From positions 42,558-106,557 of the IMG/VR virus record IMGVR_UViG_3300012662_000001: a stretch of 64,000 bases of DNA. One strand, written 5' to 3'. Positions 6,725-64,000 of this stretch are shown here, piece after piece (the stretch's first letter is position 1; each line of letters begins with the position of its first letter). The notes below the pieces were generated by a model. It searched no databases, was not told where the DNA came from, and saw only the letters and a list, made by a program, of their open reading frames with translations. The DNA comes from a virus. A program made the position numbers and the translations under genes.

Positions 6725-6726
6725 TG

Positions 6727-7299: not shown

Positions 7300-7312
7300 A
7301 ATACGAAATTGT

Positions 7313-8266: not shown

Positions 8267-8268
8267 AA

Positions 8269-8541
8269 TTATCTGTAGTTTTGGATTTTCTCGAAAAAGA
8301 CATTAATGGCTTCCAGAATGGCCTGAAGATCCAGACCGCTGAACTCTGACGGCTCATATTCATTACCCCAGATGTCGGCCACGTTGATCCAACCGTTCCC
8401 CTTGCGAATCACTGACTTAATCTGTGCGAAGTCACCGTTAACAGTTGCACAGTCAAGTGGGTGTGAAAAGAAAAGTTCCGTGTTAAGAGGAAGAGTGGAC
8501 TTGATGAATGACTTAAAGTCAGAAACTGAAAAACGTGCCAT
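8269..8541 (-). CDS. hypothetical protein (ATG at 8541 preferred over the alternative start at 8568)
   Basis: ORF downstream of a minus-strand TACCTTTG box; begins MARFSVSDFKSF... Confidence 0.5.
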   Translation of the reverse strand: MARFSVSDFKSFIKSTLPLNTELFFSHPLDCATVNGDFAQIKSVIRKGNGWINVADIWGNEYEPSEFSGLDLQAILEAINVFFEKIQNYR

Positions 8542-8596
8542 AATGCAAAGCAAAATAAAAACCAACAAACAAAGGCAACCAACCTGATTGCAAGTG

Positions 8597-8604
8597 CAAA
8601 GGTA
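8597..8604 (-). promoter_or_regulatory. Bacteroidota-type -7 box on the minus strand (TACCTTTG)
   Basis: The reverse complement of CAAAGGTA lies upstream of the 8541 start and heads the leftward operon. Confidence 0.4.
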
Positions 8605-8654
8605 GTCATCTTTCTTGGAAATCCAAGGATTTTATCAAGAATTTTCTAAAAAAT

Positions 8655-9446: not shown

Positions 9447-9466
9447 TTCGTTTGTAATTTGATGCA

Positions 9467-9474
9467 CAAATATA
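9467..9474 (-). promoter_or_regulatory. -7 promoter box (TATATTTG on the minus strand) for the rep gene
   Basis: CAAATATA on the + strand, 20 nt upstream of the ATG at 9446. Confidence 0.5.
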
Positions 9475-9510
9475 CAAATTATTTTCATAAACTATAATCC
9501 GTTCGTCTGT

Positions 9511-10502: not shown

Positions 10503-12065
10503 ATGGCAGAAAAGAAATTGGTTCCAGTCGAGAGGTTCAGGGAGGTTGCCCTGAACAACGGCTATGAAGTGTTTGATGAGACACAGGTGGCGGACTATGC
10601 CAAGGACGCTATGATGAAGTCTCAGGCAGGTGTTCTTTCAAAGGAGGACAAGGATGAGTTCGCCGTGGAGATGGCGGGACTTATGAAGGCTATCTGTGCG
10701 AATGGGGACGGCAGTCAGTGCACTCTCTACTATCGCAAGCCGCTTGTTGACTGGAAAGTTGACGGCAACGGTGTCGTGATGAAGGGGATCGCAGGAACGT
10801 ACACTGACACCCCTGAGAACAGAAAGTTGAATCGTGTGGGTCAGGCTTATGTTCCAAGTTCTGATGTTATTAAGTCTATCTATGGTGCTGGAAAGGAGGA
10901 CATCGAGGAGAATAAGGTTGATGCTGAGATGGCAGAACAGGCCTCTTTCATTAGAAAGTCCTGTGCCGTTGTGGCCGCTGATGCGGAGAGAAGACTTGCC
11001 CTTGGTGAGATTGATGAAAAGCTCTGCAAGTCAGTGAAGACCGAGGTTGGTATGTATCTGACTTCGTGGGGTGACACGCTTGATGAGTGCTGCGACGTTG
11101 TGAAGTCTGAGGACTTGGCTGACGTGCGTGAGGACTTGGCTGACGCCAAGGCGGCATTTGTTGACATTGTCAAGGCCGCTCACGGTCGCTATGCTGACAC
11201 CGCCAAGAATAGAAGACTGCATCGTGTTGGTCAGGAGTACGGCAAGGCGGCTCAGGAGAAGGACAAAGATGAGAAGAAGCAGGGTGCGACTGATGGTGTA
11301 TCAGGTGGGAAGCCGTCTCGCAATGGTGATTCCGTGAAACGTGATCTTTCCATTCTTGAGGAGAACAAGGATAGGATTGTTGAGAAGTACGGCCAGGAAG
11401 CCTATGATAGGAAAGTTGAAACCCTAAAGAAGGAGGGTGATGACTACGAGCAGAAGGAGACCGTGAAGCAACTCAAGGAGCGTGCTGACAAGCAGGACGC
11501 TGAGGAGGAGGAACGCAAAAAGGCTGATAAGAGAGCCAAGCGTCAGGAGAAGCGCAGAGCACGTCACGCAGCCAAGCGTGAGGCCGCTAAAAAGGCCAAG
11601 GAGGAAGTCGAAGTCAAGGCAAAGGCTGAAGTGGAGAAACAGCATCCTGAGGAGAAAGAACAACCTGAAAAGAATGCGAATAGCATTGAGTTGACTTCTA
11701 AGGGCATTAAGGACTATGTTGACAAGAATAGCAGTACCCCTGATGCTCGTATGCAAGCGATGGCCGCAGCCTATAAGGCACTCAAGGATAGTGGCAAGAG
11801 TAAGAAAGTTGACACGTTTGTTAAGGAGGTGTCAACTGGAAGTCCAAAAGTTGATATGGTTACACGGAAGTATGTGGAAGCTACTATGGCTGGAGCCACA
11901 CACGAGGAAGCCAAGGCGTTTGCTGAAAAGGAGTTCAACTTACTTGAGCACGGTATTCAGATGGCTCAGACTGCCATAGAGGACAATCTTCCTCAAGGTA
12001 TGGCACAGCATTTGATGAAGACAGCCTATGCCGTCTTTGATAAGGCGAAGTTTACAAAGAAGTAG
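10503..12065 (+). CDS. highly charged protein with two copies of a Y-x-D-x-x-x-N-R-[KR]-L-x-R-V-G-Q-x-Y motif and a K/E/R-rich low-complexity core; candidate packaged/internal protein
   Basis: YTDTPENRKLNRVGQAY and YADTAKNRRLHRVGQEYG. The C-terminal module is paralogous to the next gene. ATG at 10503 is chosen because the GTG at 10425 abuts the promoter box. Confidence 0.6.
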   Translation: MAEKKLVPVERFREVALNNGYEVFDETQVADYAKDAMMKSQAGVLSKEDKDEFAVEMAGLMKAICANGDGSQCTLYYRKPLVDWKVDGNGVVMKGIAGTYTDTPENRKLNRVGQAYVPSSDVIKSIYGAGKEDIEENKVDAEMAEQASFIRKSCAVVAADAERRLALGEIDEKLCKSVKTEVGMYLTSWGDTLDECCDVVKSEDLADVREDLADAKAAFVDIVKAAHGRYADTAKNRRLHRVGQEYGKAAQEKDKDEKKQGATDGVSGGKPSRNGDSVKRDLSILEENKDRIVEKYGQEAYDRKVETLKKEGDDYEQKETVKQLKERADKQDAEEEERKKADKRAKRQEKRRARHAAKREAAKKAKEEVEVKAKAEVEKQHPEEKEQPEKNANSIELTSKGIKDYVDKNSSTPDARMQAMAAAYKALKDSGKSKKVDTFVKEVSTGSPKVDMVTRKYVEATMAGATHEEAKAFAEKEFNLLEHGIQMAQTAIEDNLPQGMAQHLMKTAYAVFDKAKFTKK

Positions 12066-16404: not shown

Positions 16405-17352
16405 ATGCTTTTTACGGACAAGGACATACAGCGTATTCTAAAGGAAGTGGACTTGTCCACGGCCAAGTTGGTGGCTCGTGTTCTTGGCAGAAATTACCTG
16501 ACGAAGTATGACCTCGATTTGTTGAAGAAGCGTGGTGTTGACCTATTAAAGTTGATACCGAAGTTTCCAGTGCATTATCAGTCGTTCCTGTTTGGTCGTG
16601 TTTCGGCCGCACTGGGCGATTCCATCACTAGAACGATGGGTTATTCTGATCTGTTACAGTTTCTTCCTAAAATGGGTGATTTTGTCCCGACTGCGATGGA
16701 ATTGTCCTTCTATGACGTGGCGGCTAATAAGACCTACACACATATAAAGGGCTTTGGTGATAGACTGAAGAATGACGTGCGAAACGCTATTTCCGCCGAG
16801 GAGATGTCCTATATACAGACTGAACAGGCCGCAAGGGCGAACAAGGTCATTCACGATGAGATATTGAATGGTACTGTTCAGAAGCGGACGGTGCAGAAGA
16901 TTGCTTCCAATATAGCACATCAGATGGATGACTGGAATAGGGATTGGGGGCGTATTGTGGAGACGGAGTGTCAGGATGTGTTCAATCTTGGTAGGGCACA
17001 GACGTTTATGCAGGATGACGCTGATCCCAAGGTGTTCTTTCAAGTGTATCCTGGAGCCTGTAAGCACTGCATCCGTCTATATTTGACACACGGTGTGGGT
17101 TCACAGCCGAGGATATTCAGGCTTTCAGAGTTGTTGGCCAACGGCACGAACTATGGTGTTAAGTCGAAGGAATGGAAGCCTACCGTTCACCCAGTACATC
17201 CCTTTTGCCGCTGCCAAATAACCAGACTTCCAGAGGGTTATGTATGGAGTGAGGAGAATCACAGGTTTGAACCTCCTAAGAACTATGTTCGTAAGGTACA
17301 GCGCAGGAGCAAGGTTCACATTGATATCGGTGACAAACATTATGACGTATAA
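16405..17352 (+). CDS. minor head protein, Mu gpF / SPP1 gp7 family
   Basis: WNRDWGRIVETECQDVFNLGRAQ...YPGACKHCIRLY...VHPVHPFCRCQI matches the terminal HP.CRC signature of Phage_Mu_F. Confidence 0.85.
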   Translation: MLFTDKDIQRILKEVDLSTAKLVARVLGRNYLTKYDLDLLKKRGVDLLKLIPKFPVHYQSFLFGRVSAALGDSITRTMGYSDLLQFLPKMGDFVPTAMELSFYDVAANKTYTHIKGFGDRLKNDVRNAISAEEMSYIQTEQAARANKVIHDEILNGTVQKRTVQKIASNIAHQMDDWNRDWGRIVETECQDVFNLGRAQTFMQDDADPKVFFQVYPGACKHCIRLYLTHGVGSQPRIFRLSELLANGTNYGVKSKEWKPTVHPVHPFCRCQITRLPEGYVWSEENHRFEPPKNYVRKVQRRSKVHIDIGDKHYDV

Positions 17353-18688
17353 AAATTATATGATTATGAGATTCAAGAAATGGCTTGGGATAATGACTCC
17401 GCAGGAAAAGCTGGAGGAGTATCACGATCTTAGAAAGCGGCTTGCTCAGATAGAGGATGAGGGTAAAGAACTTGCTCATCAGTTCTCTATTCAGAAGTCC
17501 ATTGTTGACAGCATTGGTGAGGGTGTGCCTGATTCCAGAAGAGCGGAGGTGCTTGCGAAGCACACCGACTTTATGAAAGGTCACACGAAGCGTGTCACTG
17601 CCTGTGTCAATGAGCGTGAAAAGATTCTGAAGGGAATTGCCGTGCTTGTTGAGGAATGTCAGGAGGTGCGTGATGAGATTGCCAAGAGCCGCAAGTTGAA
17701 CGGTCTGATGGAACTTCGCAAGGTTGGCAAACTGAACGAGAGTGAATATTTTAATCTTGTCAAGTCAGTGGACGGCAAGCCTGTTCGGTATGCTGATATG
17801 GTTGCTATGCGTGAATCAGACGGCAAGATTCTCATTCTGCATCGTGTGGATGATGAGATGTGTTCGACAGGTGAGGTGTGCATTCCTGGAGGTCACGTTG
17901 AGCCTGACGAGGACTTTAAGACAGCGGCCTTGCGTGAGTTTAAGGAAGAGACGAATCTTGATCCTATTGTGGCCAGAGGTATTCGTTATCTCGGTGAGTA
18001 TAAGAGCGTTGATGCTCACATTCAGTATTTTCAGGTCTATGTGGATCCAGGACAGCCGATTACGGTTGATGCCACAGAGGAGTGCTTCTATGAGTGGATA
18101 GACATAAGTGAGATTCCGTTCAAAAACTTTATCTTTGACCAAGGGAAGAATGTGCTGAATATGATGAACAGGGTATGGCGTATGGATTCCGTTGAGCCGC
18201 TTGACACGGTTGTTAAGGCTGTTCAGGATGGTCGTATGTCCGTTCAGTGTTTTAAGGAAATCTGTTCTGACATTGTGAAAAAGGCACTGGCCACGGAGAA
18301 CGCAGCACCTGTCATTCCGGAGAGTATGGAGGGTGACGTGAAGAAACTCACTATGCCTGTTCGTGACCCGATGTGTGGTGTTGAAACGCTTTTGAAGGGA
18401 ATCAACGGTGTTGACGAGGTGGTTGTGAACGGCACGGAGACTATTAAGTTTGTTAAGCCGTTGTTCATTCATAGTGTTTCCTATGAGGAAAATCCGGAGA
18501 CAAATAGACTTGTTCAATGTGAGGTTGCCTATGTTGGTGAGGATTCAGATATGAGCAAGCTGATTGACGTCTTGCGGAATGGTTTGAGGAATGGTTCGGT
18601 GAATTTCAGAGTTAAGGAAGAGGAATTTACTTCCGTTAATGAGAACGGCACGGACTATGTCGGTGACCCCATCTTTGCGGTTATGTAA
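17342..18688 (+). CDS. Nudix-hydrolase-domain protein with coiled-coil N-terminus and unknown C-terminal domain (start uncertain: 17342, 17360 or 17366)
   Basis: Nudix box GGHVEPDEDFKTAALREFKEETNLD (Gx5Ex7REUxEExGU). Confidence 0.75.
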   Translation: MTYKNYMIMRFKKWLGIMTPQEKLEEYHDLRKRLAQIEDEGKELAHQFSIQKSIVDSIGEGVPDSRRAEVLAKHTDFMKGHTKRVTACVNEREKILKGIAVLVEECQEVRDEIAKSRKLNGLMELRKVGKLNESEYFNLVKSVDGKPVRYADMVAMRESDGKILILHRVDDEMCSTGEVCIPGGHVEPDEDFKTAALREFKEETNLDPIVARGIRYLGEYKSVDAHIQYFQVYVDPGQPITVDATEECFYEWIDISEIPFKNFIFDQGKNVLNMMNRVWRMDSVEPLDTVVKAVQDGRMSVQCFKEICSDIVKKALATENAAPVIPESMEGDVKKLTMPVRDPMCGVETLLKGINGVDEVVVNGTETIKFVKPLFIHSVSYEENPETNRLVQCEVAYVGEDSDMSKLIDVLRNGLRNGSVNFRVKEEEFTSVNENGTDYVGDPIFAVM

Positions 18689-51032: not shown

Positions 51033-51692
51033 ATGAATTCCACGATTAGATACATAATTGTTGGCGATAGTGAGACTGGAGGTCTTCCTAATAAGGACAA
51101 ACAGGCTTTCTATGACATTGCATTATGTGAATTTGCCTTTGTCGTCATAGATATTCAGGAAATGAAAGTGGTGGAGGAATGGAGCACTCTTTTCAGACCC
51201 TATAAGGACAATCTTGAATACAACCCCAAGGCACTTGAGGTCAACGGTCTTACGGTTGAGCAGTTGCAGGAGAGTGGTGATGACTTGAAGAACATTTACA
51301 AGGAGATGGTTACACTGTTTAAGAAGTATAAGAATCCTCGTATAGGGGCAGTGCTTGCAGGGCATAATTTTCAGCCGTTTGATATGCCTTTCTTGATTAA
51401 TATGTTTGAGTTCTGTGGCGACAATATCTGGAACTATGTCACATTTGTGGAGGATACGATGAAATTGGCTTGGTATCGTGCCACGGAGCAGGAGAATTAC
51501 AAGCTCGGAACGTGCTGTCGTATGGAGGGTGTTGACTTGGTTGATGCTCATCGTGCCCTTGCTGACACCAAGGCAAATGCTCTGTTGCTTCTAAAATATA
51601 TTTCCTATCTGCGTGGCTCTGGGGAGGGTTTAGATGTTGCGGCTCCAAGGATGAAGCCGTCTTCCTTTAGAGAGACGTTTCAACTTGTGTAG
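51033..51692 (+). CDS. DnaQ-like 3'-5' exonuclease (DEDDh)
   Basis: Exo I IVGDSETGGL, Exo II LAGHNFQPFDMPFL, Exo III HRALADTKA. Confidence 0.8.
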   Translation: MNSTIRYIIVGDSETGGLPNKDKQAFYDIALCEFAFVVIDIQEMKVVEEWSTLFRPYKDNLEYNPKALEVNGLTVEQLQESGDDLKNIYKEMVTLFKKYKNPRIGAVLAGHNFQPFDMPFLINMFEFCGDNIWNYVTFVEDTMKLAWYRATEQENYKLGTCCRMEGVDLVDAHRALADTKANALLLLKYISYLRGSGEGLDVAAPRMKPSSFRETFQLV

Positions 51693-51694
51693 TG

Positions 51695-54600
51695 ATGATT
51701 GAGTTTAATGAGAATAATAGTCTTTCTTTTCGGCAGTTGGATAGCATTATAGACACTGTGACGAGAATAGTACAGAACCTCCCTGTAAAGGCCGTAAATC
51801 AGCTTATGGAAGCATATAAGGGAGATCAGGACGCTATGCTGTCAGAGATATTTCGTCAGACGGAGAATGTTCTGAAGTTGAACACCACACTGGAGACGGA
51901 GCGTTTGTCCTATGTGGATCAACTGACTGAGAGTATGGATGATTCTCTGAAAATAATGTCATATAACTACTTTAAGACCACAATGCTTCCTAACTTTAGA
52001 CAGGGGTGGAGGAATCTTGAATGGGGTAATATGATTCAACTGTATCCGAATAGTGGCTATCTTGCGGCTCGTTCTCACGGAAAGTGTTTTCTGGCTGGAA
52101 CTCATATATTGATGGCTGACTGGACAGTGAAGAGCGTGGAGGATATCTATCCTGGAATGGAAGTGATGGGTATGGACTTCACTCCGAGAAAGGTTCTTAC
52201 ACGGCATATCGGTCGGTCACAGATGTTTACCGTGCATCAGGAGAACGGTATTTCCTATACCGTGAATAGATTTCACATTCTCTGTCTATGGGATACGAAG
52301 AGGAAGCACTATGTTGAGGTTCCGATGGGAAACTTCTTGAAGTATCCTCAGGAGAAGCAGAATAGGTTTAGGGGGTATAGAGTGTTTTCGAGTGACAATC
52401 CAATACTGGAATATTCACCTATAACCGTTGAATCGTATGGTGATGGCTCATATTATGGCTTTGCCTGTGATGGTGACCATAAGTTTCTTCTGGAGGATAA
52501 TACAGTTGTTCACAACTCCTATGAATTCTGTATGGCGTTTCCTTTGTGGAGAATGTATTCCTATCGTAGACCGAACTTTATGAAGCCTGATATTCCGGAT
52601 AATAAGAATAGAAAGGAAACGTGTATTATAACCAATACGGAAACACTCGGTAAGGAACATCTGGATAAGGTTAAGGAGGAGATTCATACCAATGAAGCAC
52701 TTTCAGCGGTGCTTAATCCGAACGGCAAGGCTTCTCTTGGTGCTACTGGCTTTGAATGTGAGAATGGATCCAAGTTGCATCTTAGAGGAAAGGACGGCTT
52801 TATCCGAGGTCTTCACGTGGGGGCGGCTGTGTCTGATGACCTCCCTGATGATAGTTCCATTTATAGTCTTGAACAAAGAGAAAAATTGAGAGATTTATTC
52901 AAGGGTGCTATCACGCCTATTGTGGAGCCGTATGGTTACAATATCGTGGACGGCTGTGTTACGCCTGATACACTTGTGCTAACGGCTGATGGCATTAAGG
53001 AAATTGGGCAGCTTGCGCCTGTTGGTCTTGACTCTGAACGTGGTTACTATGACTGGAAAGGTCAGGCGTATAATGGTCAGAATCTGGAGAATGTGTTGTC
53101 TTATTATGTGAATGGCAATACTGAGACAATTCGTGTGATACTTGACAGAGGGTTTGAATTAGAGACAAGTCACGTTCATCCAGTGCTTGTGTGTGACACG
53201 GATGGTAGGTTTGTGTGGCGTAAGTGTGAGGATCTTTCTGTTGGTGACTATGTGGCCGTGAAAATTGGTTCTAATGTATGGGGCAAGCCTTTGAATATTG
53301 ATAGAGAGGAATTGTATCAGATGGGAATGTGTGTGGCTGATGGGTGCTTGAGTGAAGATAGAATAACAATAGCCAAAAAGGTTGATGGAATACGAAAGTA
53401 CTTTATTGATGAACAGGGCTGGCATCCTGTGAAAGGTGCTACACACGATGATATTTACTTTAGGTGGTATAGACAGGAGAAACGTGAACTTTGGCATTCT
53501 CTTGGTTATGAATATGGTCTGTATAGTCACACTAAATCCATTCCAGAGAAAGTGCTTTCAGCTTCCAAGGCTGACTTGTGTGCATTTCTTTCAGGGTATT
53601 TTGACGGTGATGGATGTTTAACAAGAAATGATAGAGATCATTATCATATCAGTTGTTTTTCTGTAAGTAAACGACTAATTCAGCAGATTCAGTTCGTGCT
53701 TTTGAATATGGGCATAGTTTCACACGTTGCCTATAAGAAATGTCAATCCACTGAAAAGGTTAAGACAGATAGAATGGGATATCTATTGCGTATAAATTCT
53801 CAGAATATGATTCAGAAATTTATGCGTGAAATTGGTTTTCCTCATTCGGGCAAGGCGGATAAATATGTTGACTCAGAAGTTAAGGTGAATAATGTCTGTC
53901 AATACGGTGTGCCTTATCAACGTGACTTGTTTAAGCGAATAAGAAAACAGATTCACTTGACTGATGAAGATAAGAAGCAGTTTGGGTTGGAATCATTTAA
54001 GACACAGAATAGAACAGAGATTCCTATCTATACTGTGAGTGAAATGCAGAGATTGTCCAAGTGGGTTGAAAATTCAGAGTTGCGAAATGAAGATGCTTCT
54101 ATCTTTTTGAGTAATGCAAGATTAGGGTATGTTTTCTTACCTGTGAAGTGCTTGGAACAGGGGCAGAGTGTTACAGTTGATTTTTCAATGCAGGAGACAC
54201 ATTCCTTTGTTTCCAATGGAATTATTTCTCATAACACGCCGTATCAGGCCCAAGATCTCTATTATGAACTGAAGCAGGATCCAAAATTTATGGTATTTGA
54301 ATATCCAGCGATATTTCCTGATGGTAGACTTCTGGCTCCTGACCGTTTCACGTTTGACAAGTTAATGGAGGAGAAGAAGTCCGTTGGTACGCTTGTGTTC
54401 AGTCGTGAATATCTTGTTGTTCCCATTTCGGATGATTCCACCATATTTCCTATGGAGATATTAATGCGAAGCACGATAGGAATGGAGAATGTGCGGCTTG
54501 TGGATAACATTGAATCGTTTCCATTCAAGTTGTCCAGAGTGGTTGTGGGGTGTGACTTTGCCGTGTCAGGAAACGTGGGTGCTGACTACACCTGTTACAC

Positions 54601-55075
54601 GGTGTGGGGGAAGGACTTGAACGGTTCCTATTATCTTCTGTATATCTATCGGGAAAAGGGTCTTTCCCATAATGAGCAGATAAACAAGATAGAGTATTTG
54701 AATACGGTGTTCAAGCCGAATGAGATTGTGGTGGAGAACAATGGCTTTCAGTCCATTCTTGCTGATATGTGCGTGCAGAGAGGAATAAGGAATATATTTC
54801 CGTTTACCACCACTTCGGGGAACAAGAAGGACTTGCGAACAGGGTGGGCGTCACTTGCGGCCTTATTTGAGCGAGGTGACATACGATGTCCATATCACCC
54901 TGACACACGACAGAGAATAGACACTATGTTCGGGGAGTTTACATCCATTGCATTCCGTTCTGATAGAGGTACGTTGGAATCCATCAGTGGTCACGATGAC
55001 ACGGTGTCTTCCTCGTTTATGGCAATAAACAGATTACGTGAATCGGCTCTTCAGATCAAGGTCGATGCAGTATAA
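51695..55075 (+). CDS. terL: terminase large subunit precursor containing two inteins
   Basis: The spliced Walker A is LAARSHGK/SYEF. The nuclease-domain C-terminus reads VVGCDFAVSG...VVENNGFQS...GHDDTVSS. Confidence 0.8.
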   Translation: MIEFNENNSLSFRQLDSIIDTVTRIVQNLPVKAVNQLMEAYKGDQDAMLSEIFRQTENVLKLNTTLETERLSYVDQLTESMDDSLKIMSYNYFKTTMLPNFRQGWRNLEWGNMIQLYPNSGYLAARSHGKCFLAGTHILMADWTVKSVEDIYPGMEVMGMDFTPRKVLTRHIGRSQMFTVHQENGISYTVNRFHILCLWDTKRKHYVEVPMGNFLKYPQEKQNRFRGYRVFSSDNPILEYSPITVESYGDGSYYGFACDGDHKFLLEDNTVVHNSYEFCMAFPLWRMYSYRRPNFMKPDIPDNKNRKETCIITNTETLGKEHLDKVKEEIHTNEALSAVLNPNGKASLGATGFECENGSKLHLRGKDGFIRGLHVGAAVSDDLPDDSSIYSLEQREKLRDLFKGAITPIVEPYGYNIVDGCVTPDTLVLTADGIKEIGQLAPVGLDSERGYYDWKGQAYNGQNLENVLSYYVNGNTETIRVILDRGFELETSHVHPVLVCDTDGRFVWRKCEDLSVGDYVAVKIGSNVWGKPLNIDREELYQMGMCVADGCLSEDRITIAKKVDGIRKYFIDEQGWHPVKGATHDDIYFRWYRQEKRELWHSLGYEYGLYSHTKSIPEKVLSASKADLCAFLSGYFDGDGCLTRNDRDHYHISCFSVSKRLIQQIQFVLLNMGIVSHVAYKKCQSTEKVKTDRMGYLLRINSQNMIQKFMREIGFPHSGKADKYVDSEVKVNNVCQYGVPYQRDLFKRIRKQIHLTDEDKKQFGLESFKTQNRTEIPIYTVSEMQRLSKWVENSELRNEDASIFLSNARLGYVFLPVKCLEQGQSVTVDFSMQETHSFVSNGIISHNTPYQAQDLYYELKQDPKFMVFEYPAIFPDGRLLAPDRFTFDKLMEEKKSVGTLVFSREYLVVPISDDSTIFPMEILMRSTIGMENVRLVDNIESFPFKLSRVVVGCDFAVSGNVGADYTCYTVWGKDLNGSYYLLYIYREKGLSHNEQINKIEYLNTVFKPNEIVVENNGFQSILADMCVQRGIRNIFPFTTTSGNKKDLRTGWASLAALFERGDIRCPYHPDTRQRIDTMFGEFTSIAFRSDRGTLESISGHDDTVSSSFMAINRLRESALQIKVDAV
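52085..52516 (+). mobile_element. mini-intein 1 (144 aa) inserted in the terminase Walker A P-loop
   Basis: Starts CFLAGTHILMADW, ends YYGFACDGDHKFLLEDNTVVHN, followed by Ser+1. Excision restores GKS. Confidence 0.8.
52955..54235 (+). mobile_element. intein 2 (427 aa) with LAGLIDADG homing endonuclease domain
   Basis: Starts CVTPDTLVLTADG. DOD motifs LYQMGMCVADGC and AFLSGYFDGDGC are present. Ends THSFVSNGIISHN, followed by Thr+1. Confidence 0.85.
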
Positions 55076-56634: not shown

Positions 56635-57668
56635 TGAAGTACGATAAGGAAAATATCATTGACGAGCTTGGGCTTGTCCCATTCGGTTCTCAGGGGTGGC
56701 TGTCGAACAAGGAGATGGTCTGTCCATTCTGTGGTAAGTCGGGGAAGTGGGGTGTTATATTTAATGACACTGGAGGGGCGACATTTCATTGCTGGAAATG
56801 TCCACGCAAAACCTCTCTATATGAATTTCTTAAGAAAATAGATAGGGCGGATCTTGCAAAGGTTACATATACTGTCAAGCCTGATGAGGTGTGTCCTAAA
56901 ATAGGTGAGGAGCAGACAGAGGAATCACAGTGGATGATTTCTACGGAGTTGCAACCGTTGGAACTGAAACCTGTTGCACTTCCATTACGACTGAAACCAC
57001 TTGTAGGTGATGAGTACCTTGAAAATAGGGGATTCAATGACTATCATTATAGACTGTTTGAACCCTCCTATACCAATACGCCACTGGAACCGAAGTTGAG
57101 AAATTATATTGTGTTTAAGATGAAGATGGACGGTGTGTGTGTAGCGTGGTGGGCGAGAAGTCGCTATTCAAAGGAATGGCATAAGGAGAATCTGGAACTT
57201 TATAAGCAGCACAAGGCTGAACTTGTGCTTCGGTATAGAAATTCTGAGAGCAACTTTCAGGACTTGCTTGGTGGCTATGATCAACTTGTTGCGGATGTTA
57301 CACAGACGGTGATTCTTGTTGAAGGGATCTTTGATATGATAAATATCACAAATATTCTGGGACTTGCTGATGTAAGTGATGTCAAGTGTTGTTTTACATT
57401 CGGCAATAGCATTGGTAGAGGACAGATAGAATCACTCTTAAGGAAGAAAGTTAGGAATATAGTACTTTTGTACGATGACGGGACAATAGATGAGAGCCGT
57501 GAGGCCGCCTTACGAATGAGAGAACTGTTTGATACAGTGATGGTGGCGGCTATAAGGCGTAGAGGTGTTGATCCTGGAAATATAGATATAGACTATTTGA
57601 CGGAGGTGCTGGGATCAGCCTGTGATCCATTGACGTTTTCCTATAATAGGCTTGAAATGAAGATTTAG
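56634..57668 (+). CDS. DNA primase (zinc finger plus TOPRIM)
   Basis: CPFCGKSGKW...HCWKCPRK, VILVEGIFDMINI and IVLLYDDG. Confidence 0.75.
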   Translation: MKYDKENIIDELGLVPFGSQGWLSNKEMVCPFCGKSGKWGVIFNDTGGATFHCWKCPRKTSLYEFLKKIDRADLAKVTYTVKPDEVCPKIGEEQTEESQWMISTELQPLELKPVALPLRLKPLVGDEYLENRGFNDYHYRLFEPSYTNTPLEPKLRNYIVFKMKMDGVCVAWWARSRYSKEWHKENLELYKQHKAELVLRYRNSESNFQDLLGGYDQLVADVTQTVILVEGIFDMINITNILGLADVSDVKCCFTFGNSIGRGQIESLLRKKVRNIVLLYDDGTIDESREAALRMRELFDTVMVAAIRRRGVDPGNIDIDYLTEVLGSACDPLTFSYNRLEMKI

Positions 57669-57671
57669 ATT

Positions 57672-58130
57672 ATGAACAAGGAAGTTATTAGGTCTCAGGA
57701 GGAGTTTATTCATAAGTTGGAGATGGAGTATCTTACGCACAAGTTGAGGTCACTTGTGTATCGTAAGATGAAGTACATAAAACTTTCCAGAGATATGGCA
57801 GCGAAGAAGAAGGAGAAGATTCAGGCGCTTGGTGCGAAATTTGGTATATCTACGATGTTTGACACAGGTGTGGCGGAGTTTGTGAATGAACACTTTTGGA
57901 ACAAGTGTGGACTTCCGAATCTTTCCTATAAGGATAGCGAACAGAAACGTGTGCAGGGTAATTATGACGCTTGGTATCTTCTGTATCGTGGGACTGTTAT
58001 AATGTATAACGGTGAGCCTTGCATGGTTGTAAGTAATAATCCTTCCACAAGAACAGTTCAGGTGTTTGATGGTTGTTTTGCAATGAGTTATGATGAAATA
58101 TCTCTTGTGAACGACTATGACTGGGAATGA
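57672..58130 (+). CDS. hypothetical protein
   Basis: ORF. Confidence 0.45.
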   Translation: MNKEVIRSQEEFIHKLEMEYLTHKLRSLVYRKMKYIKLSRDMAAKKKEKIQALGAKFGISTMFDTGVAEFVNEHFWNKCGLPNLSYKDSEQKRVQGNYDAWYLLYRGTVIMYNGEPCMVVSNNPSTRTVQVFDGCFAMSYDEISLVNDYDWE

Positions 58131-58157
58131 CGTTTTACTAAAAAGACAAAAATAAAA

Positions 58158-58418
58158 ATGATTAAGGTAAAGATTTTTAATGAGAGTAAGTTCTTGGAAC
58201 CGAAGTATCTTCCGGAATACAAGAGCTTGGGTGCGTCAGGCGTGGATCTTAGAGCTGACATTGATGAGGACATTGTACTGCATCCTATGCAGCGAATGCT
58301 GATTTCGACAGGGTTGAGGATGGCTATTCCGCAGAACTATGAAGCGCAGGTTCGTTCTCGTTCAGGGCTTACGGTGAAGAACGGTGTTATTGTTCTTTCT
58401 CCAGGTACTATTGACGCT
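58158..58418 (+). CDS. dut: dUTPase exon 1
   Basis: GASGVDLRA (motif 1), VRSRSG (motif 2) and SPGTIDA (first half of motif 3). The frame then runs into a stop after 4 more codons. Confidence 0.8.
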
Positions 58419-58464
58419 GGACTTTTATCATAATATGTCAATGTCAATAGTTCCATAAAATATT

Positions 58465-58472
58465 TATATTTG
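58465..58472 (+). promoter_or_regulatory. -7 box TATATTTG inside the intron, upstream of the HNH ORF
   Basis: 21 nt upstream of the ATG at 58493. Confidence 0.4.
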
Positions 58473-58492
58473 CACATAAATTGAGTGTAAAT

Positions 58493-59143
58493 ATGAAACA
58501 AGGTAAAGAGTATAATTGTATTTGTCCAATTTGTGGTGTAGCTTTTTACACAAAGCCTTCCAGATTAAAAAGAACTAAGAATGGTGTATGCTGTTCTATG
58601 TTATGTGGTCGTAAATTGAGAGCGAAATTTATGCTTGGTATGGGGAATCATCAATATGGTTTAACTGGAAAATTAAATTCGAGCTATAAGCATGATGAAA
58701 AAATAAATAATGCAGGGTATCGAATGATAAATGTTCCAGGACATCCAAAAGGAGCTAAAGATCGCAGGTATGATGAAATGACTTATATCTTGGAACACAG
58801 GCTTGTAATTGAACAAAATTATAATTTCTTTCCTAAAGAGTTTTTCGAAATGAAAAATGGTTGGTTTGTTTTGAAGGATTGTTATGATGTTCATCATATA
58901 AATCATGATAAATTGGATAATCGGTTAGAAAATTTAGTGATTATTACCAGAGGGGAGCATACAACACTTCATAATTTTGAAAAACAAATAATAAGGGACT
59001 GTAAGACAGGGCGTATAATTGGCGTCATTAAACAGGGTGAATTGCTGGAAAATCCAGAAGTGGACAATCAGCAGCCAAGTCAAGATGGCAACATTTTGAA
59101 AGGTTCAACGACTAACAACCGAACCCATGAATGTGGGCAGTAA
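58493..59143 (+). CDS. intron-encoded HNH homing endonuclease
   Basis: VHHINHDKLDNRLENLVIITRGEHTTLH plus an N-terminal CxxC...CC...C zinc finger. Confidence 0.8.
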   Translation: MKQGKEYNCICPICGVAFYTKPSRLKRTKNGVCCSMLCGRKLRAKFMLGMGNHQYGLTGKLNSSYKHDEKINNAGYRMINVPGHPKGAKDRRYDEMTYILEHRLVIEQNYNFFPKEFFEMKNGWFVLKDCYDVHHINHDKLDNRLENLVIITRGEHTTLHNFEKQIIRDCKTGRIIGVIKQGELLENPEVDNQQPSQDGNILKGSTTNNRTHECGQ

Positions 59144-59260
59144 TGTTGACACGAGTGCCCTGTGCAGGTAAAACTGTAAAGATATAGTCTGAACTCTATG
59201 TATAACTTAATATTGAAGATAGAGAATATTTGGATAAAGAGCCAAATAGATAACAAAATG

Positions 59261-59455
59261 GATTATAGAGGTGTTATTGGTATTCCTTTGGCCAATTTGG
59301 GTGATGAGGACTTTGTGATTCACAGAGGGGATCGCATTGCACAGCTTGTCTTTCAGAAAGTGGAAAAGGCTTGGTTTGAGGGTGTCGGTTCTGTTGAAGC
59401 ACTTGGTTTCACTGATCGTGGTGACGGTGGTTTTGGGCATACAGGGGTGAAGTAG
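59261..59455 (+). CDS. dut: dUTPase exon 2
   Basis: [14 protein letters not shown] (motif 3), GDRIAQLVF (motif 4) and [10 protein letters not shown] (motif 5). The spliced product is 151 aa. Confidence 0.8.
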
Positions 59456-59496
59456 AAAAATTCAGGAATATTCCTTGGATATCTAAGATAAGTGAT

Positions 59497-59504
59497 TATA
59501 TTTG
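59497..59504 (+). promoter_or_regulatory. -7 box within the second copy of TTATATTTGCATTGTGAAA
   Basis: Identical 19-mer to 12107-12125. Confidence 0.55.
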
Positions 59505-59540
59505 CATTGTGAAATTTTAACAACTAAATCAAAAACGATT

Positions 59541-60140
59541 ATGGAACAGAAAGAATTGTCCGTAAGGATGAAGATCCGCAAGTTCAAGAATGACGCTGAC
59601 AAGTTGTCAGAAATCATCGAATCAGAAACGTCCACTGAACTGGAGAAGAAAGTGGCCTCAGAGTACCTTGCCAAGTTGCAGGAAGCCGAGCAACCTGAAC
59701 AATCAGAAGCACAGATAGCCGCTCCGGAGGAGACGACACTCTTCCCAGAGGCAGAAGAGGAGAAACCAACTCCTAAGAAGGAGGAACCTATTAGTTCTGA
59801 ACTTACTCCTGAGGAAGTTGAACGTCTTGATGCGGCTGAGAAGAAATTTGATGAGCGTCAGGCCAATCGCAAGACACCGTCCAAGGCGGACAAGAATATG
59901 CGTGAGGAACGCAAGAAGATACGTTCAACCGCCAATCTGCACGAGGGTAAGAGAGAGAACCTTGAGGAATCCACAGAGGTTCCTGGTCTGAAAGTCGGTT
60001 CCACTGTAAAGGTGGGTGACGAGGAGTGTTCCGTTATTCGTGTCTATCGTAGCACTGACGGCAAGGAGAAGTGTATGATCAAGATTGGAGACGGCAAGAC
60101 TGTCAAGAAGCGTGTCACTTCAGTGACACTCGTAAAATAG
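59541..60140 (+). CDS. hypothetical protein: charged disordered region plus small C-terminal beta domain
   Basis: ORF; ATG at 59541 chosen because the ATG at 59502 lies inside the promoter box. Confidence 0.5.
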   Translation: MEQKELSVRMKIRKFKNDADKLSEIIESETSTELEKKVASEYLAKLQEAEQPEQSEAQIAAPEETTLFPEAEEEKPTPKKEEPISSELTPEEVERLDAAEKKFDERQANRKTPSKADKNMREERKKIRSTANLHEGKRENLEESTEVPGLKVGSTVKVGDEECSVIRVYRSTDGKEKCMIKIGDGKTVKKRVTSVTLVK

Positions 60141-60149
60141 TTAGGTTTT

Positions 60150-60884
60150 ATGGTTACGGATTCAGGAACCATAATCCTTATCAAGGGGGTCAGTGGAAGC
60201 GGTAAATCCACAAGGGTTTATTGCTTCCTTGATTTCTTGGAAAGCATTGGTATGGAACTGAAACCGTACCAATTTGTGAACATACTTGGACAGACGCAGG
60301 AGATAGGTCTATACTCTGAGGAGTTGAATATGCTCTTTTTGGGGAAATTTTATAACGACAATGGTGTTCGTAGATGGCAGGGTCTGGACGCTGTCACAGG
60401 GCGACTGCATACGGCTGAGGGTCTTTCCTATTTTCTGAAATGGGCAGGTCAACATAAACTGAATGTGGTGCTGGAGGGTGCTGGAACTTCCGTGACGTGG
60501 CGATTGCGTCCGATGGAGATATGTGCCGAGTATGAATATCTAAACATCCTTTATCTGGTCTATACGTTTAAGTTGGAGCAGTATGATGACTATATCAGGA
60601 GAATAGAGTATCGTTCCGGTAAGGCTCCGAAAAGCGACGCTATGTGGCGGAAACGTAAGGGGTTTGAATCCGACTATACCCAGACTGTCGCTGAAGCGAA
60701 GGACTTGAATGCGGCAGGAGCGGACATTGTTATCAAGTATAATTTATTTGATGCCGTGCCGTGGGATCTTGGTGTAAGCATTATGCAGTATTTCGGTCTT
60801 GATGAATTGTGCAATGAGTTTAGGCAGTTTGTGGGGAATGGCGGTTACATTGAACAGAATTCTTTTGAAAACATTGGGAAATGA
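60150..60884 (+). CDS. P-loop kinase (candidate 5-hmdU DNA kinase or nucleotide kinase)
   Basis: Walker A IKGVSGSGKST; ATGA-coupled to the next gene. Confidence 0.55.
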   Translation: MVTDSGTIILIKGVSGSGKSTRVYCFLDFLESIGMELKPYQFVNILGQTQEIGLYSEELNMLFLGKFYNDNGVRRWQGLDAVTGRLHTAEGLSYFLKWAGQHKLNVVLEGAGTSVTWRLRPMEICAEYEYLNILYLVYTFKLEQYDDYIRRIEYRSGKAPKSDAMWRKRKGFESDYTQTVAEAKDLNAAGADIVIKYNLFDAVPWDLGVSIMQYFGLDELCNEFRQFVGNGGYIEQNSFENIGK

Positions 60885-61891
60885 GCAGGATAGTTCCAAA
60901 TGACAATCTGACATATTTCTTCTATTGGTGTTGTGAACGAATGAATATATTCTGGAAACGCTACAATGGTGAGAAGCAACCGTGGACTGATGATGAAATA
61001 TTGCGACAGTATAAGTTCACGAATGTGTATCGTGTGCTGGATAGATCAAGTCAGTATATGCTTCGGAACGTTATTTATAACGGTAAGCAGTATTCTTCTG
61101 AGGATATGTTCTTTCGCATTCTACTTTACAAGTATTTTAATCTTCCTGATACGTGGGATGCTTTGATTAAAGAGTTCAGTGATGTTACATACGACACTGG
61201 ATGGGAGAATATTGCACGTTTTCTTGATGATAGAATCAGGCAGGACATCACTATTTATTCCAATGCCTTTATGCTGACAGGGTGGTTTTATACGTTGCCG
61301 AGATATGCGTGCATTCGTGGGAAGTCAAAGCATAGAGGATACTTTGAAGTCTTTAGACAGAGAATATTCGATAACGGCAGGATTGACGTTTTCCTTCGTG
61401 CCACGAGGTTTGAGGAACTGTTTAATCTGTTCAAGGAGTTGGAGCCGTTTAGTGATTTTATGGCACAGCAGTACTGTCTTGACTTAAACTATTCCCCTCT
61501 ATACAATTTTACGGAGAATGAGTTTGTGGCGGTCGGTCCAGGAAGCAGGAGGGGGATTCAGTTTGCCTTTAAGGGGGATCACAAGGATGACGGTGAAGTT
61601 GTTATACGGTGGACACAGGAGCACTTTGAGGAACTGATGACACGATTTTGTCACGATTCAGGTATGGTCTGGAATCCATTGCCGTGGGAGCCAGTGCCGA
61701 CGTTGACAAATATTCAGAACTGTTTCTGTGAACTATCGAAATACGCCAAGGCTATGGGTGTGACATTTAATGGGAAGTCCAGAGGGCGTGTGAAGAATGT
61801 GTATAGTGCATTAAAATCTGAAATTCCTTATATGTTTCCAAGGAAATGGAACGTGGAGATGCCGTTAAAAGGGCAGATAGAAACTTATTAA
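60881..61891 (+). CDS. candidate DNA base-hypermodification protein (resembles the aGPT-pyrophosphorylase / 5-hmdU-kinase-helical families; assignment from recall)
   Basis: N-terminal block IFWKRYNGEKQPWTDDEILRQYKFTNVYRVLDRSSQY; located between the kinase and TS-like genes. Confidence 0.4.
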   Translation: MSRIVPNDNLTYFFYWCCERMNIFWKRYNGEKQPWTDDEILRQYKFTNVYRVLDRSSQYMLRNVIYNGKQYSSEDMFFRILLYKYFNLPDTWDALIKEFSDVTYDTGWENIARFLDDRIRQDITIYSNAFMLTGWFYTLPRYACIRGKSKHRGYFEVFRQRIFDNGRIDVFLRATRFEELFNLFKELEPFSDFMAQQYCLDLNYSPLYNFTENEFVAVGPGSRRGIQFAFKGDHKDDGEVVIRWTQEHFEELMTRFCHDSGMVWNPLPWEPVPTLTNIQNCFCELSKYAKAMGVTFNGKSRGRVKNVYSALKSEIPYMFPRKWNVEMPLKGQIETY

Positions 61892-61906
61892 AAATAAGAA
61901 ACGATT

Positions 61907-63034
61907 ATGTATTTTGAATTTGATAATCTCAGTCAGGCACTTGTTGGTCTGTCGTTGAGTCTTAACGCCAATGGTGTGTGGACAAAGAGGGGAACCAATC
62001 CAGCAGGAAACGGGTGTCTGGAATTTCCGGAAGCGGTTCTTATAAAGATAGAAAATCCATTGAATAGGTATGTCTTTGTTCCGGAACGCAAGTGGAACAG
62101 GACACTTGGGTGGATTGAGTCACTTTGGATTGCCAGAGGGGATAACTCTTTGGAAATGCCGTCATCCTATGTTAAGAATCTGTTGACATTCTCCGATGAC
62201 GGTGAGACAATGCGTGCAGGATACGGTCCGAGGATTCGTGGGTTTGGTGGCCATCTTTGGAATAAGGCTATTCGGGATGTGGATGGTTCAGTGCTATATT
62301 GGATGGAAAAACAGTATGATTCCAGGAATAGTTGTCATAATCTTGGTACGGTGGATCAGCTGAAGTTTGTAGTGGATAAGTTTAAGCAGGATCCAACAAC
62401 AAGAGAGGCCGTCATCACCATTCACGATCCTATGGCCGATGACTTTAATGGTAATGAAATCCTCAGGACGAAGGACACCCCTTGCACTCGTTCCATTCAC
62501 TTTATGATTGTGAACGGCAAGATGAACTGTTATGTGGATATGAGATCCAATGACCTGTTCTGGGGTTTCAGTGCTGTTAACGTTTTCAACTTCACCTTGA
62601 TGCAGGAATATGTCGCTGCGATGGTTGGTGTGCCTGTTGGTGTGTATTTCCATAAGGTGGACAATCTGCATATCTACGAGGGTTCTCTTCCTATGCTTCA
62701 GAGCATAATTGCAGTCAATGAGACGCCACGAGGTGTTGAGGTGTGGTCAGATTGGTATAGATTCTCGGAATGCAGTGATTGGCACGGCTATAAGCATACC
62801 TACAGAACTTTGGAAGGCTTTGATGCACGAATTGGTCTACTGTCCAATTTTGAACGTGGAATGCGTGGTGTTGATGACTTGCCGTATAGTAATGATGAGG
62901 CTCTGGACGAGATAGAAGCCAAGTTCTGGGACGAACCGATGTTTAGGGACTGGGCAAAGGTTATCTATCGCAAGTGGTCAAAGGACACGACCGTGACATT
63001 TGACAATCCGTATCTGACAAAGTTATTTGTCTGA
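61907..63034 (+). CDS. thymidylate synthase / pyrimidine hydroxymethylase superfamily enzyme (candidate dUMP hydroxymethylase)
   Basis: DQLKFVVDKFKQDPTTREAVITIHDP, the catalytic Cys context TKDTPCTRSIHFMIV, MRSNDLFWGFSAVNVFNFTLMQ and DNLHIYE are collinear with ThyA motifs. At 375 aa it is longer than ThyA. Confidence 0.7.
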   Translation: MYFEFDNLSQALVGLSLSLNANGVWTKRGTNPAGNGCLEFPEAVLIKIENPLNRYVFVPERKWNRTLGWIESLWIARGDNSLEMPSSYVKNLLTFSDDGETMRAGYGPRIRGFGGHLWNKAIRDVDGSVLYWMEKQYDSRNSCHNLGTVDQLKFVVDKFKQDPTTREAVITIHDPMADDFNGNEILRTKDTPCTRSIHFMIVNGKMNCYVDMRSNDLFWGFSAVNVFNFTLMQEYVAAMVGVPVGVYFHKVDNLHIYEGSLPMLQSIIAVNETPRGVEVWSDWYRFSECSDWHGYKHTYRTLEGFDARIGLLSNFERGMRGVDDLPYSNDEALDEIEAKFWDEPMFRDWAKVIYRKWSKDTTVTFDNPYLTKLFV

Positions 63035-63101
63035 AGTTACTTTGTAGAAACCATAAGAACAGCCGTGCAACCTCTGGTCGGGAAGCCTATTTAATCGTAC
63101 C

Positions 63102-63131
63102 TTGATGGAATTGAAATTGATGGAATTGAAA
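63102..63131. repeat. perfect 15-bp tandem duplication TTGATGGAATTGAAA x2 (TGATGG occurs three times)
   Basis: Copies at 63102-63116 and 63117-63131, with a third TGATGG at 63134. Confidence 0.8.
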
Positions 63132-63202
63132 CGTGATGGGTAAGGAGGAAGTTCGAGACTTCTCACGGTTGCAAGTTTAACCAAGTTAAAAATGATTTCG
63201 TT

Positions 63203-63742
63203 ATGAACTACAAAAAGATTGACTATCTACTTCAGATGAAGCAGATACAGAGACTTCCAAATGTTCCTCACCACAGAAGTTACAATATTCTTGAGCACGG
63301 CTTTGTGGTCGGTATGCTCTTCAGGTGGTTTGCTTCCGCCTGTGATGTATCCTATGATATCAACGTGTGGGACAAGGTGCTTATGCACGACTATTTGGAA
63401 GCGTTCACAGGAGACCTGAACTTTGTTGTTAAGAATCTCACTGAAAAAACTTCAAGTGCGTGGGCTACGATAGAGAAGGAAGTCTGTGACCGTGACACCG
63501 CCCTGAACCACTATTCAGATGAAGCCATTAAGTCCGCTATGACAGAGGAGCAGCACACCCTCTTTAAGGCGTGTGACTATCTTGATTTGTGGATATTCTG
63601 CAAGCAGGAGGAAGCACTTGGCAACACCACGACTGGAAACAAGGCTGTTATAGACAACTGCAAGAGACTCATCTGTAATCTTTGTGGGCAGGACAGAAAA
63701 TGGCTTCCAATCTTTGATTTTATGGCTAAATACACAGCGTAA
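63203..63742 (+). CDS. HD-domain phosphohydrolase (YfbR-like 5'-deoxynucleotidase family)
   Basis: HHRSYNILEHGFVVG ... LMHDYLEAFTGD (the H...HD...D pattern). Confidence 0.7.
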   Translation: MNYKKIDYLLQMKQIQRLPNVPHHRSYNILEHGFVVGMLFRWFASACDVSYDINVWDKVLMHDYLEAFTGDLNFVVKNLTEKTSSAWATIEKEVCDRDTALNHYSDEAIKSAMTEEQHTLFKACDYLDLWIFCKQEEALGNTTTGNKAVIDNCKRLICNLCGQDRKWLPIFDFMAKYTA

Positions 63743-63744
63743 TT

Positions 63745-64000
63745 ATGGATGAGAGAATTCCAGTTGAAATATATGCTTTTGTCGGAGTGATAGGCTCTGG
63801 AAAGAGTTATCGGCTTGAACAGATGAAGAAGGAATATAGCGGTGACGGTCAGGTTGTTATCACCGCTGATTTCTCGGATGGCATACGTGAACTGGCACGG
63901 CAGTTGTTTGGATATGATGCTCACTTTGGTGATGTGAATTCTCAGGAATATCGTGACTGGAAAGAAAATATGGCTTGTGTGACCATTCATAATGGAGCGG
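63745..64000 (+). CDS. P-loop kinase, dNMP-kinase-like (3' end beyond the window)
   Basis: Hand translation gives MDERIPVEIYAFVGVIGSGKSYRLEQMKK.... There is no stop before the window end, so it is absent from the ORF track. Confidence 0.5.
   Translation, partial: MDERIPVEIYAFVGVIGSGKSYRLEQMKKEYSGDGQVVITADFSDGIRELARQLFGYDAHFGDVNSQEYRDWKENMACVTIHNGA

Follow-up and report, generated by a model that had tools for sequence, protein, structure and literature searches.

Thymidine hypermodification is a pathway type already known (PMC5889632, PMC8989533, PMC13458397) and has been shown chemically in a few cultured phages. Among the closest described systems, Pseudomonas phage M6 makes 5-(2-aminoethyl)-deoxyuridine (5-NedU) with a cluster spanning gp51-gp59, Salmonella phage ViI (Ackermannviridae) makes 5-(2-aminoethoxy)methyl-deoxyuridine (5-NeOmdU), Bacillus phage SP10 makes alpha-glutamylthymidine, and phage SPO1 replaces thymine entirely by 5-hydroxymethyl-deoxyuridine (5-hmdU). 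In vitro, the ViI kinase gp243 adds one phosphate to 5-hmdU in DNA, yielding 5-phosphomethyl-deoxyuridine (5-PmdU) (PMC8989533). Here we describe a related locus in a stretch of 64,000 nucleotides (nt) of the IMG/VR virus record IMGVR_UViG_3300012662_000001 (hereafter the window, to whose positions all coordinates refer unless a contig is named), namely the region 58158-64000, in which all genes are co-directional on the + strand. We consider it likely that this region is a nucleotide and DNA modification module, by which thymine is replaced by 5-hmdU and the base is then modified within the DNA. The locus is set apart by its uncultured gut-phage lineage, by a DnaE-type polymerase, by a single DNA kinase, which is of the HMUD2 type, and by the lack of a known transferase.

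The order of the genes is that of M6, where kinase gp54, the PF18723 protein gp55, the thymidylate synthase (TS) homologue gp58 and the HD protein gp59 succeed one another in the same way, and the Pfam families of the last three are shared with the window. The M6 kinase, however, is of the HMUD1 type (PF18748), whereas the window phage has an HMUD2 kinase (PF18747), and the M6 amino-acid:DNA transferase (AADT) gp51, pyridoxal phosphate (PLP) decarboxylase gp52, radical SAM isomerase gp53 and Nmad5 protein gp56 are absent here. ViI supplies the closest tested kinase homologue (gp243), clusters its gp67 kinase, thyA, dnk and dUTPase genes and has a PF18723 protein, but it has an HMUD1 kinase in addition to the HMUD2 one, a serine:DNA transferase (gp247) and a PLP enzyme (gp226), its genes are dispersed, and its host and virion lineage are unrelated to those of the window phage. 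Akin to the window phage, SP10 combines a kinase with PF18723 and has no PF18724 protein, that is, no second Pplase, and yet its DNA contains alpha-glutamylthymidine (PMC5889632, Table 3); SP10 and Bacillus phage Nachito also have the closest TS homologues among the characterised or cultured phages compared. SP10 differs in its Firmicute host, in an HMUD1 kinase that is fused to PF18723 and in a large extra protein, gp185, listed as radical SAM. SPO1 shares with the window a TS of the dUMP hydroxymethylase type along with dUTPase, nucleotidase and deoxynucleoside monophosphate (dNMP) kinase, and the capsid of the window phage is distantly related to those of Herelleviridae; SPO1 is, however, among the phages without kinase and Pplase genes (PMC5889632), whereas the window phage has both, under purifying selection.

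The sequence-only reading of the window had proposed a thymidine-replacement cluster of six consecutive genes. The listing of open reading frames (ORFs) shows a co-directional + strand block from dUTPase fragments to a second P-loop gene, and all six genes are found at or near the positions given for them, with profile matches far above chance and with exact coordinates for the three central ones (60150-60884, 60881-61891 and 61907-63034). They are not strictly consecutive, as an intron with an HNH ORF and an ORF of 212 aa intervene. The families proposed for them were upheld by profile, pairwise and structural comparison.

The 375-aa protein encoded at 61907-63034 (+) matches PF00303 with 66.4 bits (cut-off 24.3, E 3e-18) and phrog_5131 with E 2.4e-60. 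The catalytic Cys, the Arg-Ser-x-Asp motif (phosphate and ribose contacts) and the His-x-Tyr motif are all present, the segments DTPCTRS, MRSNDLF and NLHIY aligning with PCH, RSCDVF and THLY of ThyA, and with MilA. The base-specificity Asn (SAVNVF) pairs with an Asn in ThyA and an Asp in MilA in the HMMER alignments, and it falls in one column with the corresponding Asn of the 5-hmdU-phage enzymes (ViI, M6, SP10, Nachito). The catalytic Cys and uracil-type Asn pointed out earlier are therefore confirmed, and the enzyme groups with those of 5-hmdU phages rather than with ThyA: its best PDB match is the CMP hydroxymethylase MilA (7e-24, versus 1.9e-12 for ThyA; HMMER), and BLASTP gave E values of 2.5e-34 for Nachito, 1.7e-33 for SP10 gp188, 6.6e-31 for ViI thyA and 5.5e-26 for M6 gp58, as opposed to ~1e-12 for dCMP hydroxymethylase, td and ThyA. 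Moreover, it has a long C-terminal extension, as do the homologues of 5-hmdU phages, and is without the C-terminal tail of ThyA. These likenesses lead us to predict that the protein is a dUMP hydroxymethylase. We give almost no credence to a role in ordinary nucleotide metabolism, in which the TS homologue would make dTMP, the P-loop proteins would be nucleotide kinases and the DNA would be canonical. The motifs listed above are indeed common to the TS homologue and ThyA, and many GenBank records label such genes thymidylate synthase or guanylate kinase; but the enzyme lies much nearer to MilA and the 5-hmdU-phage homologues and has the C-terminal architecture of the latter, the tested member of the kinase family acts on 5-hmdU in DNA, and PF18723 has no role in canonical metabolism.

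The kinase gene (60150-60884, +) encodes 244 aa with the Walker A motif GVSGSGKST, and its product is a predicted 5-hmdU DNA kinase of the HMUD2 type, as had been suggested for this P-loop gene. It matches PF18747 (HMUD2) with 78.5 bits (cut-off 25, E 6.6e-22) and is 31% identical to the tested kinase ViI gp243 over 181 residues (E 1e-19), the Walker A motif aligning with GTSGTGKGT of gp243, which itself has 304 aa and scores 561 bits on the same profile. By BLASTP it has no similarity to the HMUD1 kinases M6 gp54 and ViI gp67. In cultured phages, homologues of HMUD2 are found almost exclusively in Ackermannviridae. The ratio of nonsynonymous to synonymous substitution rates (dN/dS) of the kinase gene, against four relatives, is 0.04. 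A truncated kinase, as called in some contigs (184 aa), was considered and rejected: contig L001 (contigs compared with the window carry L numbers) is 100% identical to the window, where the 244-aa ORF is open, the shorter calls arising because the gene caller chose another start codon.

The start codon of the next gene (60881-61891, +, 336 aa) overlaps the stop codon of the kinase gene by 4 nt (ATGA). Its product matches PF18723 with 248 bits (cut-off 25, E 1.4e-73) over profile positions 4-275 of 281; this family is the former aGPT-Pplase clade 1 and now bears the Pfam name '5-hmdU DNA kinase, helical domain' ('HMUDK_hel'). In an alignment of 39 clade-1 sequences, including members from M6, SP10, Microbacterium phage Golden, Klebsiella phage and metagenomes, R20, F46, R51, D54, A129, F193, D201, G221, C283, E284 and K287 are invariant, and the Cys-Glu pair together with the conserved Asp and Arg looks catalytic. 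The AlphaFold2 model of the protein (pLDDT 93.2, pTM 0.91) matched, among predicted viral structures, SP10 gp186 best (TM 0.77, E 5e-12), other clade-1 proteins with TM 0.64 (PhiW-14 C9DG43) and 0.62-0.70 (Lucky3), and predicted viral models of AADT with a probability of 0.96-0.97 and TM 0.41-0.46. Against the PDB the top match was the 5-PmdU glycinyltransferase PaMx11 gp46, albeit weak (E 0.5), followed by helix-hairpin-helix (HhH) glycosylases, while the clade-1 sequence profile found no match there. The AADT transferases of PF18724, or clade 2 (M6 gp51, PaMx11 gp46 with PDB entry 8z2n, and the Pplase2 proteins of YuA and SH-Ab 15599), have a related fold, and an HhH-like G-x-GP-[FW] motif is common to the two clades, as is a conserved Cys on a C-terminal helix, although this Cys lies in E-T-x-L-C-K-W-K in AADT and in N-C-F-C-E-x-x-K in clade 1. 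The 336-aa protein has no PF18724 Pfam match, and the characterised transferases M6 gp51 and ViI gp247 fall in PF18724, not PF18723. The proposal that it is of the aGPT-Pplase type consequently holds as far as PF18723 is concerned, but does not extend to the characterised transferase clade; judged from the models, the protein is structurally a remote relation of the transferases and has a Cys-Glu pair of its own, but does not belong to their family.

Kinase and PF18723 genes are adjacent in M6 and in the related contig L106, overlap in Golden, lie near each other in Nachito and are fused in SP10, whose gp186 combines an HMUD1 kinase with PF18723 and adjoins the TS gene. Such linkage, including the overlap in the window, bears on the idea that PF18723 serves the kinase as a partner for DNA binding or targeting, a 'helical domain' in the sense of its Pfam name, with 5-hmdU and/or 5-PmdU as the end product and no further step. 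The idea also accords with the lack of any transferase or tailoring enzyme in the genome and with the finding that 5-PmdU alone already blocks NcoI (PMC8989533). We nonetheless find it unlikely, if worth weighing: M6 gp54 alone and C-terminally deleted SP10 gp186 are active in vitro without the domain (PMC8989533), the invariant Cys-Glu pair and the conserved Asp and Arg appear catalytic, and in ViI-like phages the PF18723 gene is far from both kinase genes.

To assess what else the phage encodes, we considered the whole genome of ~106 kb, of which the window is a rotated copy as judged by the ENA contig ERZ808263 NODE_7 (106,510 bp) and the ~42 kb outside the window were reconstructed from L001 and L012 (100% identical to the two window ends), L084-L088 (near-identical) and the relatives L015 and L065 (~80-87% nucleotide identity where they overlap the genome). 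Scans for the 25-kb gap, of viral contigs with an LPD29 protein and of metagenome contigs with an SNF2 protein, returned relatives only. Among the genes of the reconstructed part are those for a split DnaE, SbcCD-like proteins, RecA, an NAD-dependent ligase, helicases, RNase H, GroEL, a sigma factor and a second Dcm methyltransferase. In window and reconstructed genome, PF18724 gave no match with E < 0.01 in any scanned ORF or in the precomputed Pfam annotation, and no PLP, radical SAM, flavin adenine dinucleotide (FAD), acetyltransferase or glycosyltransferase gene appeared in Pfam scans of sizeable ORFs or in that annotation. Likewise, tblastn of the genome with the M6, ViI and SP10 enzymes detected no transferase or tailoring enzyme. 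A first hidden Markov model (HMM) of AADT was too narrow, missing the Pfam-positive AADT of contig L107, and its negative result is weak for that reason; rebuilt with the members from L101 and L107 and run on six-frame translations, the broadened HMM reached no better E than 0.39 in the genome, and a six-frame regular-expression scan for the AADT motif E-[ST]-x-L-C-x-[WYF]-[KR] found it in the relatives L101 and L107 and not in the genome. In place of a complete cluster of the M6/ViI/PaMx11 type we thus find the predicted dUMP hydroxymethylase and 5-hmdU DNA kinase with AADT and tailoring enzymes absent; the further enzymes that had been thought to lie beyond position 64000 are not recognisable as transferase or tailoring enzymes in the reconstructed genome. 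What the phage has is a pared-down form of the pathway that lacks the PF18724 transferase and all tailoring enzymes, and as the known next-step transferase is absent, the final DNA base cannot be predicted.

Comparison with relatives shows a constant core and a variable slot. L106, whose clade-1 protein is 56% identical to that of the window and belongs to a cluster of 3,796 sequences, has the same minimal order: dUTPase, a 240-aa protein, HMUD2, clade 1, TS, HD, a 215-aa protein and DnaE. Two distant syntenic relatives differ: L107 (clade 1 40% identical) reads HMUD2, GATase_6, AADT (Pfam ADDT), a weak Amidoligase_2, a 125-aa protein, clade 1, TS, HD and DnaE, and L101 (41%) reads HMUD2, 363-aa and 393-aa proteins, clade 1, a 252-aa protein, TS, HD and DnaE, the extra genes between HMUD2 kinase and clade 1 occupying 2220-7014 in L107 and 5027-9868 in L101. 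The 393-aa protein of L101 seems a divergent AADT: it is not recognised by Pfam but contains the motif LESTLCCYKSW, and while its E of 1.3e-81 on the broadened HMM comes from a model of which it was itself a building sequence, independent, weaker support is given by hhalign against the clade-2 alignment (E 0.004). The genes in the slot of L107 and L101 probably make different thymine modifications. The core is thus constant, and the slot between kinase and clade 1 holds the donor-specific enzymes; in the lineage of the window it is empty. Clade 1 has a dN/dS of 0.05-0.07 within this transferase-less lineage (against four relatives), so that kinase and clade 1, both under strong purifying selection, are kept even though the transferase is missing. 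Protein clusters of clade 1 at 51-59% identity contain hundreds to thousands of member sequences.

The constancy of PF18723 has also to be considered in relation to thymine itself. PF18723 could turn 5-PmdU in DNA back to thymine, such that the mature DNA would contain T or a T/5-hmdU mosaic: PF18723 is present in 4 of 4 classical hypermodifying phages, whose DNA contains a single hypermodified base beside T (PMC5889632), it is retained across relatives that differ in their transferase cassette, and treatment of AADT with borohydride gives thymidine (PMC8989533), which indicates that the intermediate is reducible. It would then be the route from 5-hmdU to T in PhiW-14 and SP10, a conversion stated to be unknown (PMC5889632). 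We regard this conversion as quite improbable for the window phage, however, given that the protein is predicted to be nearly all-helical, with no recognisable hydride-donor or cofactor-binding domain, and that a phage lacking the transferase would gain nothing obvious from a pathway that merely regenerates T.

PF18723 homologues occur beyond phages. In the bacterial contigs L098 and L099/L100 (112 to 669 kb), proteins 35-39% identical to the phage protein are encoded beside TIR or ThsB_TIR, Nmad2, radical SAM-SPASM and AbiH genes, with a TS homologue 37% identical to that of the window adjoining in L099/L100; the gene neighbourhoods suggest that PF18723-type enzymes also serve bacterial nucleotide-based conflict systems. 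One might then suppose that TS, kinase and PF18723 act on free nucleotides as a conflict system (superinfection exclusion or counter-defence) and not on the phage's own DNA, all the more as a bacterial system of TS, dNMP kinase, 5-hmdU kinase and NMAD has been validated as anti-phage (PMC13092281). This is very improbable in our view: the genes belong to the replication module, with primase, dUTPase and DnaE around them, and follow the order known from phages with chemically proven modified DNA, and no TIR or Nmad partner is present here.

The dUTPase, HD and dNMP kinase proteins would bias the nucleotide pool. A group I intron of 842 nt with an HNH gene inside it interrupts the dUTPase gene, a feature absent from the earlier reading, whose dUTPase claim nonetheless stands. 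Unspliced, the ORFs 58158-58433 and 59198-59455 match PF00692 at 32 and 52 bits; joined as exon 1 (58158..58418, +, 87 codons ending ...GTIDA, profile positions 5-69) and exon 2 (59261..59455, +, 64 codons plus stop, beginning DYRG..., positions 70-129), they give a 151-aa protein (...GTIDA|DYRG...) that matches the profile without interruption (96.8 bits, E 1.1e-27, positions 5-129 of 129). The intron (58419..59260, +) matches Rfam RF00028 over 58960-59207 with 64.7 bits (gathering score 50; Rfam covariance model). Its splice sites were read from the sequence, the 5' site following U58418, in keeping with group I introns, in which the upstream exon is expected to end in U, and the intron ending with the G at 59260. 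The junction is confirmed by the intron-less dUTPase genes of L095, L096 and L097, which read GTIDSDYRG uninterrupted, colinear with the spliced product, while L093 and L094 share the intron. The HNH homing endonuclease it encodes (58493..59143, +, 216 aa from the ATG at 58493) matches PF13392 HNH_3 with E 1.3e-8 and is also a called gene in L001.

Between dUTPase and kinase, the ORF at 59502..60140 (+) encodes 212 aa with an acidic low-complexity centre and a small Lys-/Val-rich C-terminal domain. Its product has no Pfam or PHROG match, but the gene is kept upstream of the kinase in relatives, with homologues in L093-L097 and L106 and a dN/dS of ~0.08-0.10 against L093, L095 and L096 and of 0.24 against L106. 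Downstream of TS, the proposed HD phosphohydrolase (63203..63742, +, 179 aa) matches the YfbR-like 5'-deoxynucleotidase family PF12917 with 61.2 bits (cut-off 25.9, E 1.4e-16); its metal-binding H...HD residues can be read in the translation (ILEHG, LMHDY), and it shares family and position with M6 gp59. The spacer between the TS and HD genes contains, at 63102-63131, a perfect two-copy tandem repeat of TTGATGGAATTGAAA, and L013, L014, L015 and L017 lack window positions 63089-63132. The second P-loop gene (63745..64000, +) runs off the window end with the N-terminal part of a 220-aa protein; L001, 100% identical to the window across the overlap, has the full ORF at 10543-11205, and its product matches the dNMP kinases of phrog_139 (E 9.4e-11), in agreement with the dNMP-kinase-like label it had been given. 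Promoters and terminators scanned for in 57600-64000 were no more numerous than in shuffled sequence.

Taken together, homology suggests the following pathway. Once the intron has self-spliced, dUTPase would convert dUTP to dUMP, to which the TS homologue would add a hydroxymethyl group to form 5-hmdUMP; the dNMP kinase would begin the conversion of 5-hmdUMP to 5-hmdUTP, while the YfbR-like nucleotidase would clear competing dTMP or other dNMPs, and the phage DnaE-type polymerase would bring 5-hmdU into the DNA. There the HMUD2 kinase, by its homology to the tested enzyme, would phosphorylate the 5-hydroxymethyl group to give 5-PmdU, on which the translationally coupled PF18723 protein would then act. 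By analogy with the related AADT enzymes, PF18723 might displace the phosphate with some nucleophile via its Cys-Glu pair, a step that we put forward as plausible though short of an even chance. That PF18723 alone resolves 5-PmdU, be it as a second family of DNA group transferases making a new thymine derivative or as a 5-hmdU-to-thymine enzyme, we propose more tentatively still for this abundant gut-phage lineage.

Several observations weigh against this pathway. The chemistry, that is, 5-hmdU or a derivative in virion DNA, is deduced from homology, and whether the TS homologue hydroxymethylates or methylates cannot be read with certainty from its sequence. The kinase covers only positions 3-179 of the 298 in PF18747, so that a full-length match including the C-terminal third was not obtained. 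The link between clades 1 and 2 is structural only (TM ~0.45), an hhalign comparison of the two being non-significant (probability 0.2), and clade 1 was dispensable for the reconstituted transferase reaction of M6, where kinase gp54 and gp51 sufficed and gp55 (PF18723) was omitted (PMC8989533); a simply redundant transferase is an unlikely role for PF18723, because it co-occurs with AADT in many phages. In addition, PF18723 and TS homologues are found in bacterial conflict loci too, and as ~20 kb of the genome are inferred from relatives, a strain-specific or very divergent transferase may have been missed.

The phage is a tailed one, with genes for a portal protein, a capsid protein of the SU10 type, a baseplate J protein and a terminase. 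Matching or related contigs come mostly from human gut or faecal assemblies, and several of the proteins have BACON domains; the capsid protein is nearest to those of phage contigs from human faeces, followed by Bacteroides thetaiotaomicron phages DAC16-23 and SJC03 (35% identity) and next by Herelleviridae including SP10 (28-30%). The phage is a myovirus-like member of the human gut virome that probably infects Bacteroidota. Megablast of 58000-64000 against GenBank phages found no near-identical DNA, and a search of the window for tRNA genes found none. The terminase large subunit (51692-55075, +, 1127 aa) apparently contains two inteins, one with a Hint domain at about residues 132-200 and one with a splicing domain and LAGLIDADG endonuclease at residues 476-848; the L106 terminase has 699 aa and one Hint domain. 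Just past the window end (L001 11202-16786), the gene for the DnaE-type polymerase is divided into ORFs of 545 and 975 aa, of which the latter has an intein, with a 284-aa ORF without Pfam match between them; in L101, L106 and L107 DnaE is undivided, at 1128-1160 aa.

Two C5 cytosine DNA methyltransferases (317 aa, window 7313-8266, - strand; 391 aa, L086 3168-4343) suggest that the phage may methylate cytosine besides altering thymine. The first lies in a minus-strand gene block (4500-9500) with a different GC skew in the otherwise + strand genome; besides this Dcm methylase the block encodes a papain-like peptidase and a protein of 277 aa in which a Rep3_C initiator domain is found, and it may be an inserted or plasmid-like module. 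From 10000 to 64000, along the co-directional gene block, the + strand GC skew is positive throughout and mostly strong (~0.2-0.28), falling to 0.08-0.14 around 20-22 kb and 26-34 kb. The head-morphogenesis module includes a 482-aa protein with a NUDIX domain (17240-18688, +; PF00293, E 1.5e-15). In L015 (14790-19896), a papain-fold Gln_amidase, a 424-aa Zeta-toxin-like P-loop kinase, an HD_4 protein and an NAD-dependent ligase are encoded in a row; with the PNK3P phosphatase at 2344-3120 of the window, these might form a nucleic-acid end-repair set.

The cluster would extend thymidine hypermodification from the few cultured phages to a widespread, uncultured human-gut phage family of ~100-kb genomes that probably infects Bacteroidota. 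A published metavirome survey was queried with HMUD1-type kinases only (PMC8989533) and probably missed this lineage, because the window kinase has no BLASTP similarity to such queries. If the DNA is modified, its sensitivity to restriction and CRISPR would be affected, and probably also the efficiency with which it is sequenced and amplified. With kinase and PF18723 kept under strong purifying selection without the known transferase, the function of PF18723 becomes directly testable, and if PF18723 does act alone, this lineage, being naturally without AADT, would be the cleanest in which to establish it. Such an activity could help to explain the synthesis of alpha-glutamylthymidine in SP10, for which we found no enzyme assigned to glutamyl transfer; the lineage thereby bears on both the conversion of 5-hmdU to T and the glutamyl transfer of SP10.

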